Source of the DNA: a virus | Lineage: Duplodnaviria; Heunggongvirae; Uroviricota; Caudoviricetes | Direction: 5' to 3' (one strand) | Length of the DNA: 14,548 bases | IMG/VR virus record: IMGVR_UViG_2529293142_000010 | Shown: positions 240-9,130 of the stretch, one piece after another | Layout of the letters: each line of letters opens with the position of its first letter | How positions within the stretch are numbered: position 1 is the first letter of the stretch | The notes under the pieces: model-generated | The model's database searches: none | What the model saw: only the letters and a program-made list of their open reading frames with translations | What the model was told of the DNA's origin: nothing | Made by a program: the position numbers and the translations under genes

Positions 240-335
240 AGGCAAGGCGACGCGGATCTGGTTCTTTGTTGTTTCCCGCTCGGACTTGAATGTTTCGGCA
301 AGGTCACCGCTACGAGTCTGGTCTGATATGGCCAT
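240..335 (-). pseudogene. 5' remnant of a gene interrupted by the IS66-family element (first 32 codons MAISDQTRSGDLAETFKSERETTKNQIRVALP)
   Basis: ATG at 335-333 is preceded by AGGAG (rc of 344-348) with an 8-nt spacer. The frame runs into the IS-derived sequence and stops at 215-213 after 8 further codons. Confidence 0.45.
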
Positions 336-350
336 TTGATAAACTCCTGA

Positions 351-376
351 AAACAAAAACCCGCCAAGTGGCGGGT
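351..376 (-). terminator. Rho-independent terminator closing the minus-strand cassette
   Basis: GC-rich hairpin CCCGCC-AAGT-GGCGGG at 360-375, followed on the minus strand by TTTTTGTTT (rc of 351-359). It lies about 20 nt downstream of the stop of the small ORF at 397 and is asymmetric, with no T-run on the plus-strand side. Confidence 0.75.
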
Positions 377-396
377 CTACAGGAACAACTCTAAGT

Positions 397-567
397 TTAT
401 TTTTTCTGTTTAAAATTGTCCAACTCAGGTTCTTTAACGCTTTCTGTCATGTAATCCAATCCATCAAAAGGTACTTCAAGCATTATACTGCTTTCATAAT
501 CAGCCATGGATTGCTCTGCTTGCGTTGGCTTACTTTGCTGTGAGTTGTCATTATTTGATGTTGTCAT
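397..567 (-). CDS. Small acidic hypothetical protein, 56 aa (MTTSNNDNSQQSKPTQAEQSMADYESSIMLEVPFDGLDYMTESVKEPELDNFKQKK); below the ORF-track length cutoff
   Basis: ATG at 567-565 lies 3 nt after the stop of the upstream membrane-protein gene (571-573); stop TAA at 399-397, just before the terminator. Same strand and same AT-rich composition as its neighbour. Hand translation gives 11 D/E, 5 K and no R. Confidence 0.5.
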   Translation of the reverse strand: MTTSNNDNSQQSKPTQAEQSMADYESSIMLEVPFDGLDYMTESVKEPELDNFKQKK

Positions 568-570
568 CAA

Positions 571-1125
571 CTATGCCTTATTTATCAAAAGAAAAGTAAC
601 CGATAATATGAAAAAACCGAAAGATAACGCAATTCCTTCAAAAAGATAACGAGCATAAACTGCCTTTTCTTTATGAAGACTTTCGATCAATTCAACAGCT
701 TTACCATACTGAAACATATGGTATCTAAGCGTTTTAATTTTATCACCGTAAAGTAAAAAATCATGCTCTTCTTTTCGCTTATGAATAGGCATTTTTGGTA
801 TATCTTTCAGTCCCCAAGTACGCCATAGGAAAAAAAAGCACATAACAATACAAACAAAGCATAGATATGCACAAAGTATAGATAATGTTAAAAACCAATT
901 ACTCTTTAGCCCACTTTTGAAATCAACAGTCCCAAATACAGCCAGTAGAGCAGAGGTTTCTACAGCTAAAATAGCAAGAAGGTAGTTAACTTTGTCCTCA
1001 AGACGACGATATGTTGATTTTGCTTCCTCATATCTATCTTTATAATATGACGAAATAAAATCAGCGCCTATAGTCTCAATTGCCTTTTGTTCTTCTGTTG
1101 TATCTATTGGCGAACACTTGCTCAT
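571..1125 (-). CDS. Hypothetical inner-membrane protein, 184 aa, three predicted TM helices with a charged N-terminal region of about 45 aa and a basic loop of about 60 aa
   Basis: ORF track. Hydrophobic stretches are LLAILAVETSALLAVFGTV, FLTLSILCAYLCFVCIVMCFFFLW and GIALSFGFFILSVTFLLI. Very AT-rich, roughly one third G+C by eye against over half in the structural genes. ATG at 1125 lies 7 nt after the stop of the upstream gene. Confidence 0.75.
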   Translation of the reverse strand: MSKCSPIDTTEEQKAIETIGADFISSYYKDRYEEAKSTYRRLEDKVNYLLAILAVETSALLAVFGTVDFKSGLKSNWFLTLSILCAYLCFVCIVMCFFFLWRTWGLKDIPKMPIHKRKEEHDFLLYGDKIKTLRYHMFQYGKAVELIESLHKEKAVYARYLFEGIALSFGFFILSVTFLLINKA

Positions 1126-1132
1126 TTCTTAA

Positions 1133-1480
1133 TCAACCAACAACTTTCTTACACGGGAAAGAGCCAATAATTTTCGGAGCATCCATGCTGTTCTGCAACA
1201 ACTGGACGTTCAGGAAACGCGTTTTAGTGCCCGGTCGATGGATATACTCGAACCCATAATTGTTGCCATCTTTGGCAGGCATCAACTCCATTTTGATCTG
1301 CATGCCTGTACCGTCTTTACCCAACATTTTTACTTTTTGGGATGTTACTGTTTCGCCATTGATTTTAAATAATGAGTCAGGGATCGCATCCATACGAAAG
1401 TTGCCGCATTGCATCGTTATGGTGTTTGCACTTACACCAACAGACACTAACGCCAGCAATGAAAATATCCATCGTTTCAT
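1133..1480 (-). CDS. Hypothetical secreted/periplasmic protein, 115 aa, with an N-terminal signal peptide (MKRWIFSLLALVSVGVSA|NT) and two Cys in the mature part
   Basis: The ORF-track frame 1133..1561 begins at an upstream alternative start; the first ATG with a Shine-Dalgarno (GAGAGGA upstream) is at 1480-1478, and the protein from there opens with a classic positive-hydrophobic-AXA signal peptide. There is no lipobox, so it is not called a lipoprotein. The start is 2 nt after the stop of the frameshifted tail gene. Confidence 0.7.
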   Translation of the reverse strand: MKRWIFSLLALVSVGVSANTITMQCGNFRMDAIPDSLFKINGETVTSQKVKMLGKDGTGMQIKMELMPAKDGNNYGFEYIHRPGTKTRFLNVQLLQNSMDAPKIIGSFPCKKVVG

Positions 1481-1482
1481 TT

Positions 1483-1978
1483 CTATAATCCTCTCTGCAA
1501 AGCAGTGCTGGATGGCATATCCTGCGCACCGCGCGCTTCGCACATCATATCCATGTACCACGCCTGGCCCCTTGTGTCGCCAGTGTACATAATCCCGCGC
1601 ACAATATAAACGCCATCCGTTGCGATGCTGGCAGGCTGCGATGTGGTGCCGCTTAGCGTGATATTTCCATCCGTGTTCTGGTCGGTGATCTGACCACCAG
1701 CCATCGCAATATCGTTGTTCGACAACGCGGTACGATACACTGCAGCCTGATCCAGCTGAATGAGTCCGTTAACCCGGATGTTCGGATTAATAAGCGCGCG
1801 GACGTTTACGCCGTTACCGATAGTCTGCTGCGGCATGCCAATAAGCCCGGTAGCGCTGTTTGAGCACAATCGCTTCATGAACATATTCGTTATTCGCCAC
1901 CATCTGGCGCTGACCATCCACGAATTGCCATGTTGCGCCACATTGCCCGGCTACGTTATCCATTAGGTGCCGCGTCAT
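1483..1978 (-). pseudogene. Phage tail-region gene of about 165 aa carrying an internal +1 frameshift (two overlapping reading frames)
   Basis: An ATG at 1978-1976 overlaps the stop of the upstream 190-aa gene in an ATGA arrangement and opens a frame with good codon usage that stops at 1816-1814 (MTRHLMDNVAGQCGATWQFVDGQRQMVANNEYVHEAIVLKQRYRAYWHAAADYR). The ORF-track frame 1483..1941 has junk-like W/C-rich translation at its 5' end but well-behaved codons from about 1830 down to its stop. Total length 496 nt is not a multiple of 3. Confidence 0.45.
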
Positions 1979-2547
1979 GCCAAAGAGTACCGCCCCCGGG
2001 GGAATACAGTAGCAGGCATTTCAGGCGTCAGGCCTTCGGTCGCGCCTTTGGCTTCGAAGTCTTTCATCAGCGCACGGTTTACATCAGCGACCGTGTAACC
2101 GGCAGCCAGCGTCTGTGAGGTTATACTGGTGGCAAAAGCCAGATCAGTATCTGCTGCCTGAATCAGGACGTAGGAATCAACCGGACTGTCTTTTCCTGTA
2201 ACCGAGTAGCGAATTTCACCGCTGAAAATCAGTCCGTAGTTGCGACCATCACTCTGGCCCACGTCCGCCGCGTCAACTTCCCGCACTGTCCCGACGTCGC
2301 TTGCCGACACCTCCGGCGCGATACCGTCGTAACCCGCAATCAGACGCACTTTCGAAAACTCCTGCCCGGTAATTCGGTTCACAGTATCTGCCGAGAGGTT
2401 ATAAATTTTGATAGTCCCTACCCGGGACGCGCTGCTGATGTTGAACCAGTCGATCGTAAAGGTGACTTTGAAATCACTTAGCTCAATTCCCTGACCGTTC
2501 CCGTCCACAAGCTGCAGCTCGAAATGTCTCATCCAGTTCTGTGACAT
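1975..2547 (-). CDS. Phage tail component, 190 aa (function not recognised)
   Basis: ORF track; ATG start; 2-nt gap after the upstream gene stop; typical codon usage; sits in the post-tape-measure tail gene chain. Confidence 0.7.
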   Translation of the reverse strand: MSQNWMRHFELQLVDGNGQGIELSDFKVTFTIDWFNISSASRVGTIKIYNLSADTVNRITGQEFSKVRLIAGYDGIAPEVSASDVGTVREVDAADVGQSDGRNYGLIFSGEIRYSVTGKDSPVDSYVLIQAADTDLAFATSITSQTLAAGYTVADVNRALMKDFEAKGATEGLTPEMPATVFPRGRYSLA

Positions 2548-5428: not shown

Positions 5429-5657
5429 TATCCTCTCTCCATTTCTCAATGCGCCGCTGGTTATCCGCTTTTACCGCCAGATGGTCATTCAAGAGAGCAA
5501 TGTCATACAAATCGACAGAGCCATCTTTAAGTGCTGTATAGGGAATTAACCCGGCGTCAACCGGATTGAGAAGGTAGGACAGCCCGTCCGGCAGGCTGTT
5601 AAACGTCAGCCCTGTTGCAGGCTCTGCGTCGTGCTGGTAAGGGGTGTAGGCAAAAAA
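5425..5657 (-). other. -1 frame extension of the tail assembly chaperone (GT-like fusion product); slippery heptamer T_TTT_TTG at 5657-5651
   Basis: The chaperone reads ...GGA AAT TTT TTG...; after a -1 slip the frame stays open for about 77 codons across the otherwise non-coding 177 nt between the chaperone stop and the tape measure start, ending at TGA 5427-5425 beside the tape measure ATG. Confidence 0.65.
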
Positions 5658-6058
5658 TTTCCCAGCGAATCGGCGACCACCCGCGCCACCAGATGAAGCA
5701 TGACCAGCAAGTCAATATCATCAAACATCAGTTCGCCATGGGTAAATACCGGCACCCATCCGTCCATATGACGCCGCGATACCACCGCAAGACAGGGATG
5801 AATAATCGCATCGGTGTCATCTTCGGTCAGGGAAGACAGTTCCTCAGCGATACGCGGGAGCATGGTTTCAAACACCGGTTTTAACTGCTCGAATTTCACG
5901 GTGTCGATTTTGCCATCAGCAGGCAAACGGGAGCGAATGCTCCCGAAATCTGACATCATTCCCGCCAGTACCGGCAGAAGTTTGCGGGTCACTTTCAGCT
6001 GGTCAAAAACGCTGAGTTTTGCCGTGCGATATTTCACACCTTTGATTTCGAATTCCAT
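5606..6058 (-). CDS. Tail assembly chaperone (G-like), 150 aa
   Basis: ORF track; located between the tube-like gene and the tape measure gene; followed by a long open -1 frame. Confidence 0.75.
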   Translation of the reverse strand: MEFEIKGVKYRTAKLSVFDQLKVTRKLLPVLAGMMSDFGSIRSRLPADGKIDTVKFEQLKPVFETMLPRIAEELSSLTEDDTDAIIHPCLAVVSRRHMDGWVPVFTHGELMFDDIDLLVMLHLVARVVADSLGNFLPTPLTSTTQSLQQG

Positions 6059-8589: not shown

Positions 8590-9130
8590 CTTTATCCCTC
8601 ACAACATGGGTAATGGCTCTGCGATATTGCCCGGTGTCAATTAATGGTTTCGCCAGATCGGTTCCCGGAGATTCGCCAGCAGCACGCCGGGCAAGTTCCA
8701 GTGTTGCCCCCTTGCGCCCCCGACGAGCCCGGGCTTCAACAGTGCTGTCAGCAAGCGGCGTAAAGCCGGTAATGGTCATGTAACGCCTGACGCCATTAGC
8801 GGCCAGCGTTCCGGCACGGTTGAGTGCGCGTTCTGCTCCCGCAGCATTACCATCAAGTGCAGCCTGCGCCGCGGCTTTGAGCTGCGGCACCGTCTGCTCT
8901 TCTGCCGATTTAACGCCGGGGACCAGGTGAGGTCGTGGCGGGATGTTCTGCTCTGGTGAGCCGTATTCGTTGAGGTAACCGATGCCCGCATTACCAAACG
9001 GAACATCATCCCGCCCGCTGTCTTCCGAAGGGATGCCGACCAGCACATCTTTTTTGGTTAACGACCTGAGCGCATCCAGAATGGCCTTAGCGTTATCCAC
9101 CCTCGTTGTTACACCGCTTTTGAAACTCAT
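8576..9130 (-). CDS. Phage structural or head-tail joining protein, 184 aa
   Basis: ORF track; ATG start; 4-nt overlap with the upstream gene. Confidence 0.7.

Follow-up and report, generated by a model that had tools for sequence, protein, structure and literature searches.

Introduction

The PycTM proteins of Pycsar are reported to be effectors that are activated by cCMP, which is supplied by a neighbouring cyclase, and that impair the membrane (PMC11224242, PMC12489823). The SLATT 2TM effectors, which are associated with CBASS/SMODS and with DRT10/UG17, combine a helical stalk with a TM hairpin; their core contains two TM helices and has both ends in the cytoplasm. Pfam 8xMP (PF24838) is a family of octameric membrane proteins. 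Among prophage functions, lambda RexAB is a two-component membrane abortive-infection (Abi) system consisting of a membrane effector and a second protein; RexB has four TM helices and RexA is a large cytoplasmic sensor. The gp15 gene of phage HK97 is a moron (the term is used here as defined in PMC3594210), i.e., an AT-rich insertion in the tail operon with its own terminator, coding for a single small YebO-like protein of the inner membrane that is expected to act from the prophage (PMC3594210).

We analysed a window of 14,548 nucleotides of E. coli DNA (IMG/VR record IMGVR_UViG_2529293142_000010), numbered from its first letter, in which a gene for a three-TM protein of 184 aa (571-1125, minus strand) is followed by a gene for a protein of 56 aa (397-567, minus strand). 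We hold with middling confidence that the two genes form a self-contained, horizontally mobile cassette, carried as a moron by a decaying myovirus prophage, within its tail/baseplate module. The 184-aa protein and its relatives resemble PycTM (PADLOC models PDLC02363-02365) in size (~160-185 aa), in predicted inner-membrane location and in their defence or mobile contexts, and the HMM matches run colinearly from the N-terminal helix through the TM pair to the C-terminal part; they differ from PycTM in that no family member has an adjoining PycC cyclase, its place being taken by a partner of ~55 aa or a fused tail. The helical stalk and TM hairpin are shared with the SLATT 2TM effectors, whereas the 184-aa protein is modelled with a third, C-terminal TM helix that would bring its C-terminus outside, and no SMODS/CD-NTase, SLOG or reverse-transcriptase partner adjoins the cassette in the loci examined. 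Similarity to 8xMP aligns the N-terminal helix and TM1-TM2, but it covers only the first half of the protein and scores below threshold. The proposed logic of a prophage membrane effector with a second protein is that of RexAB, to which there is no homology, a disordered peptide of about 55 aa standing where RexAB has its large sensor. The gp15 moron likewise has no sequence similarity to the cassette, and gp15 has no partner. PANGU systems (nucleoid-protein plus TM effector) were also considered and were rejected, as the partner is not a nucleoid-associated protein.

Results

Site of the cassette within the prophage

The window contains a myovirus prophage with a tail of the E217/PhiTE/SEN34 type, and its genes include those for portal, capsid, tape-measure, baseplate plug and hub. 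In intact relatives, e.g., that of O55:H7 CB9615, the gene order is baseplate hub (354 aa), a 115-aa signal-peptide protein, the 184-aa protein, the 56-aa protein and the membrane-puncturing spike; the cassette thus lies between the hub and spike genes of what is, in the window, a defective prophage. The spike gene was cut by an IS66-family element whose 3' end occupies positions 1-250 on the plus strand (tnpC C-terminus at 24-209); the element ends at ~245-250, within the 5' portion of the spike gene, of which only the first ~30 codons remain (about 245-335, minus strand, start at 335). A search of 5,426 complete E. coli genomes did not find this IS66/spike junction. The hub gene (1483-2547, minus strand) is split into ORFs at 1975-2547 and 1483-1941, and comparison with the unbroken CB9615 gene (354 aa) shows two frameshifts ~130 nt apart, one caused by a 1-bp deletion and the other by a 1-bp insertion. 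This may represent a pseudogene of a decaying prophage, or it could be a pair of sequencing errors. Despite the hub frameshifts and the IS66-cut spike, both cassette ORFs are intact, and the 184-aa ORF differs from the CB9615 copy by one substitution.

The GC content of the TM gene is 33.5% and that of the partner gene 35.6%, compared with ~53-54% for the phage genes. An intrinsic-terminator-like hairpin at 357..378 (minus strand; AGACCCGCC-ACTT-GGCGGGTTT, then a T-run) ends the cassette immediately before the spike gene, and an equivalent hairpin is found 3' of the Salmonella cassette. No sigma-70 consensus promoter was found upstream of the cassette in the phage copies, so that transcription solely with the late tail operon is possible; in this respect the phage copies differ from the HK97 gp15 moron, which has a demonstrated promoter.

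The hub-spike junction is variable. It holds the cassette in Salmonella and Serratia prophages also, and in phage SEN34 and further prophages of E. coli it holds unrelated small genes. Such alternative cargo, coding for proteins of 77-241 aa, was located in loci L035 (3116-3481), L036 (3117-3482), L037 (2680-3351), L007 (5147-5821) and L019 (4216-4941), and none of these genes gave a significant Pfam, PADLOC or NCBIfam match. It has the look of a cargo hotspot that is as yet unexplored, and if the cassette serves defence or exclusion, the hub-spike junction of SEN34-like myovirus prophages would be marked as one worth mining.

Directly after the hub gene comes the gene for the 115-aa protein (1133-1480, minus strand; GC ~42% over 1133-1486). 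Its product has an N-terminal signal peptide (MKRWIFSLLALVSVGVSA/NT) and matches phrog_3443 (function unknown), with no Pfam, PADLOC or NCBIfam identity. We place this gene outside the cassette unit because the protein or close relatives of it also stand beside other cargo (FDAARGOS_1289, P4, IAI1) and because Serratia has unrelated genes in that place. The 115-aa protein may be a separate periplasmic moron product, e.g., an exclusion factor.

The cassette occurs in 29 of the 5,426 complete E. coli genomes, in 21 of them at ~99% identity and in 8 more, including IAI1, as a Salmonella-like variant of 65% DNA identity. Some part of the region 210-1600 of the window is shared by 333 E. coli genomes, chiefly the 115-aa and hub sequence. 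A tblastn search of 50,697 phage records gave no match, and none of the pattern matches from a scan of genome contigs was confirmed by tblastn. The base composition, together with the patchy presence among related phages, fits a moron; likewise the low GC content, the terminator shared with the partner gene and the variability of the junction agree with the initial annotation, which had taken the 184-aa gene to be prophage cargo.

The 184-aa membrane protein

The gene at 571..1125 (minus strand) is an intact ORF of 184 aa with an ATG start. Kyte-Doolittle analysis in 19-residue windows gave hydrophobic segments at ~46-66, ~77-101 and ~161-183. Residues 1-46 include 8 K/R and 10 D/E, the loop at 102-160 (59 aa) is basic (13 K/R and 4 His), and TM2 contains four Cys (C85, C89, C92 and C96), only C89 being conserved within the close clade. 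The AlphaFold2 model, made with an alignment of 24 homologues (mean pLDDT 83.4, pTM 0.67), has helices at 10-66, 77-104, 118-126 and 129-183 arranged as a long up-down-up bundle, in which the distal two-thirds make up a cytoplasmic stalk and the remaining third is the three-helix membrane part. In 40 family members K/R number on average 17.0 in the N-terminus and loop 2 together, versus 2.3 in loop 1 and the C-terminus together, a distribution which, with the model, supports an N-in, C-out orientation. The predicted order of parts is a helical stalk with the N-terminus inside, TM1, TM2, a basic cytoplasmic linker with a helix, TM3, and the C-terminus outside.

These data are in agreement with the initial annotation, which had recognized by eye three TM helices with a charged N-terminus, a Cys-rich TM2 and a basic loop, and had drawn attention to a Glu in TM1 as possibly functional. 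Glu56 does lie inside TM1; however, it is not a family-wide residue, being invariant in 14 enterobacterial-type sequences and replaced by I, A, V or L in the other 26 of the 40 members, and it is therefore clade-specific. The positions that are invariant or nearly so across the whole family are Y27, L42, E43, K45, L106, Y140 and K154.

That the ORF is a real gene is supported by its homologues, which occur at 37-60% identity in Salmonella, Klebsiella and Serratia and at ~22-28% in a remote clade. The family is small and sharply bounded, with 15 representatives at E<=1e-3 among 1.84 billion entries and a few dozen 90% clusters among 5.8 billion. The 176-aa Salmonella variant is listed in 1,249 blocks of the indexed collection, and the gene pair is common in Salmonella. 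The 184-aa protein falls in PHROG 18554 (phrog_18554; function unknown) with E 1.9e-129. Independently truncated alleles were seen in the databases: P0008 (115 aa, E. coli), P0018 (167 aa) and P0022 (147 aa, Serratia). These could represent selection against a toxic product, or the usual decay of prophages.

The best PADLOC matches of the family were consistently to PycTM, colinear and near full length. PDLC02365 was matched by 19 of the 40 members (best E 1.9e-7), PDLC02364 by nine and PDLC02363 by five. P0023, which is 46% identical to the 184-aa protein, matched PycTM with E 2.2e-5 (residues 24-178 on model positions 8-148 of 160); the match of the window protein itself to PDLC02365 is weak (E 9e-4, 17.6 bits) and could be inflated by hydrophobic composition. 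A few members matched CBASS '2TM effector' models, six of the 40 matched NCBIfam SLATT_1 (best E 0.012), and twelve matched Pfam 8xMP (best E 5.2e-5), all of the latter below the 30-bit gathering threshold. The UniRef name of P0048 is SLATT-domain protein, and precomputed matches to PF18967, which we take to be the Pfam family of PycTM, exist for four Salmonella variants. Our own Pfam scans of the protein, of 17 relatives individually and of the 40-member alignment gave no PF18967 or SLATT match at E<=1 and returned sub-threshold matches only (8xMP, DUF2207_C and others); no cyclic-nucleotide-binding domain was detected in the scans of the protein and of the alignment. A homologue search at E<=10 gave no sequences bridging the family to PycTM or SLATT. 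Fold searches against the PDB and viral models returned generic long helical bundles only, and a profile search of PDB sequences gave nothing meaningful, i.e., no solved relative by sequence. A literature search on the RefSeq accessions, the PHROG identifier, DUF5706/PF18967 and 8xMP found nothing relevant. Taken on sequence, the 184-aa protein is probably a remote homologue of membrane effectors of the PycTM/SLATT class, from which it differs by its additional predicted TM helix at the C-terminus.

A transporter subunit, or a holin of a lysis cassette, would have been contrary to the function first proposed for the gene. No transporter homology was found, and there was no holin match in Pfam or PHROGs; the neighbours are the baseplate hub and spike genes, and the gene stands outside any lysis cassette. 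Of the proposal that the protein is an effector or exclusion component, the repeated colinear matches to PycTM, weak to moderate in score, and the mobile and defence contexts described below speak indirectly for the assignment as a candidate function.

The small partner protein

The initial annotation treated the membrane protein as a stand-alone gene and overlooked a small partner, which in some lineages is fused to it; its interpretation was partly supported, right in direction with the partner missed. The partner gene (397..567, minus strand) starts 3 nt after the TAG stop of the TM gene, with a Shine-Dalgarno-like AAGG within the end of the TM gene, and codes for a hydrophilic, acidic protein of 56 aa (11 D/E, 5 K/R) with a core motif DGLDYMTES and a C-terminal KQKK. 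It matches PHROG 18231.

The pairing is obligate in the loci examined. Among 45 loci, a small ORF of 44-71 aa (~16 distinct partner sequences) lies 3' of the TM gene in 41 of 42 copies, and the sole copy without one runs off its contig. The spacing ranges from -4 to +153 nt and is mostly -4 to +10 nt, and the partner follows the TM gene in the Salmonella, Serratia, Acinetobacter and metagenomic relatives. An HMM trained on three fused tails and nine free partners was searched against every ORF of 30 aa or more in the 45 loci (3,596 ORFs); at E<0.1 all of the matches were ORFs just 3' of TM genes, including sequences outside the training set (L026, 1e-6; L028-32/L038, 1.4e-8; L042-44, about 1e-10; L034, 2e-4). 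The partners share a polar N-terminal part containing Pro and Lys (with the sequence KPERPP in the remote clade), a core that follows the pattern G-P/D-L-x-V/M-x-T/S-E/Q-S, and a Lys-rich C-terminus.

In two separate lineages the partner is fused to the C-terminus of the TM protein. P0031 and P0038 are fusions of 245 aa, the P0031 tail matching the free partner of L020 with E 5e-8; in the other lineage P0033 is a fusion of 279 aa, whose tail matches the free partner of L015 with E 7e-7. In the AlphaFold2 model of the natural fusion P0031 the tail is disordered, with no evidence of docking.

Programmed read-through or frameshifting that would join both ORFs was considered and rejected. In nine distinct loci, including the window, the frame of the partner relative to the TM gene is 0 in two, +1 in three and +2 in four, and since the frame varies among loci, recoding does not explain the pairing. 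In the window (567-573, minus strand) the TM and partner ORFs are in the same frame with only TAG-TTG between them, and read-through of the one stop would recreate a natural-looking fusion; this is probably coincidence because the frames differ in other loci.

Contexts of related cassettes

The contexts seen were all mobile elements or defence islands. In L014 and L040 the cassette is cargo of a Tn7-like transposon, one copy being beside glmS, and in L011 and L015 it lies in prophage regions. Three loci are defence-island-like: L020 has the cassette with genes for MC2, CTD6 and a UvrD-helicase; L042 has it with genes for a 1,713-aa NERD-kinase-helicase protein and a SAVED protein, the latter about 7 kb from the cassette and outside the pair; and L017 (Acinetobacter) has it with HEPN and helicase genes, beside an inovirus. 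No cyclase or CD-NTase was found within 5-8 kb of the cassette in the window or in any of the related loci examined. In the Tn7-borne copy of L014 a promoter-like site with 10/12 matches lies 33 nt upstream of the TM gene and a hairpin follows right after the small gene; judged from these elements the transposon-borne pair looks like an autonomous transcription unit.

Discussion

We think the chances about evenly poised that the cassette is a self-contained abortive-infection or exclusion module, in which a small peptide acts as the control of a PycTM/SLATT-like membrane effector. The membrane protein would be kept inactive in the lysogen; the disordered partner of ~55 aa would either restrain it as an inhibitor, like a labile antitoxin, or act as a sensor that relays a trigger. 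Upon infection by another phage the control would be lost, or the trigger received, whereupon the membrane protein could oligomerise through its stalk and TM helices and permeabilise or depolarise the inner membrane, and such damage would abort the infection or block its establishment. A cyclic-nucleotide synthase would not be involved, unlike in Pycsar or CBASS.

The topology presents a puzzle for this module. If, as the fold and the positive-inside rule predict, the C-terminus is outside the cytoplasm, then the fused tails should be periplasmic; yet no signal peptide or other export signal was found on the free partners. Either the free partners are exported by an unconventional route, or TM3 does not span the membrane permanently, or the side of the membrane on which the partner acts differs between its free and fused forms. 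It poses a concrete question of how small proteins reach or regulate membrane effectors. One elaboration, which we consider quite unlikely, is that the cassette represents an unrecognised anti-phage class, in which a PycTM/SLATT-like pore-former is governed by a disordered peptide of ~50 aa rather than by a nucleotide messenger, and in which the peptide, free or fused, serves on the periplasmic side as a sensor or plug that detects a phage tail or injection machinery. Free partners would therefore need unconventional export, possibly via the effector itself.

The position of the cassette in a phage tail module bears upon two other explanations. It could be a non-lethal superinfection exclusion system, with an inner-membrane protein and a periplasm-exposed partner or tail that block genome injection in the manner of HK97 gp15 or P22 SieA. 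A tail-module moron coding for an inner-membrane protein is what gp15 is (PMC3594210); the cassette adjoins the hub and spike genes, and a C-out topology would put the fused tails in the periplasm, where the tail tip of an incoming phage acts. We regard this as rather unlikely, however, given that known Sie proteins are unrelated in sequence, that the free partners lack export signals, that the HMM similarity points to pore-type effectors, and that the family is carried on Tn7-like elements and defence islands as well and is tied to no particular phage. Alternatively, the genes might serve lysis timing, in a holin-like way, or virion assembly as accessories to the lytic growth of the phage itself, as might be expected of a small multi-TM protein whose gene is packed in a late baseplate operon with no consensus promoter of its own found. 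That the cassette is missing from most related prophages and, at the protein level, from all 50,697 phage records, and that relatives also exist outside phages, makes such a role extremely improbable; moreover, no holin family was matched, neither endolysin nor spanin is adjacent, and a protein of this size with a long cytoplasmic stalk does not resemble a holin.

The pairing with a small protein raises the question whether the cassette is simply an addiction module, i.e., a membrane toxin with a labile small antitoxin that stabilises its mobile carriers and has no dedicated anti-phage role. Two small coupled genes that stay together in all but one of 42 copies and are spaced in most loci by -4 to +10 nt are a toxin-antitoxin-like feature; the partner is predicted to be disordered and is probably labile, the carriers are prophages and transposons, and several truncated TM alleles (P0008, P0018, P0022) were encountered, as expected for a toxic gene. 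Many toxin-antitoxin-like modules are Abi systems, so that this explanation overlaps our main reading, and an 'antitoxin' fused covalently and lying across the membrane is hard to square with classical toxin-antitoxin logic; as a separate explanation we find it very doubtful. The same conserved small neighbour, which stands where a cyclase might be expected, argues against an orphan effector of Pycsar or CBASS type whose activating cyclic nucleotide would come from a cyclase located elsewhere in the genome or brought in by the invading phage. The best PADLOC matches are PycTM models, as this would predict, but with no cyclase or CD-NTase within 5-8 kb at any locus examined and no cyclic-nucleotide-binding domain detected, we consider it highly improbable.

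Returning to a peptide-controlled membrane effector, if the cassette does serve defence or exclusion, then an effector of PycTM/SLATT type would work there with no signal-producing enzyme, controlled by a tiny peptide only, and a function would be assigned to a gene pair common in Salmonella. The effector class itself is known; what is probably new, judged from the sequences, is the replacement of the signalling enzyme by a peptide partner in a rare and mobile unit. The architecture is minimal and easily tested because the whole unit is about 730 bp, and the cassette joins the many uncharacterised candidates for defence as a compact and testable one.

Additional observations

E. coli IAI1 carries an intact cassette of the Salmonella type (176 aa plus 59 aa) at about 2730903-2731609 of NC_011741.1 (L038 2731-3437), in a gap of the RefSeq annotation, and seven other complete E. 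coli genomes have the same match of 65% identity, likewise lacking RefSeq annotation. In L017 (Acinetobacter rudis, 5515-5889) two small ORFs of 51 and 54 aa are in tandem and both match the partner HMM; the second ORF behind the adjacent partner was matched in L017/L018. In L039 (A. calcoaceticus) a partner-like ORF (8667-8831) appears only after a gap of 153 nt. These arrangements suggest that partners have been duplicated and lost in the Acinetobacter loci.
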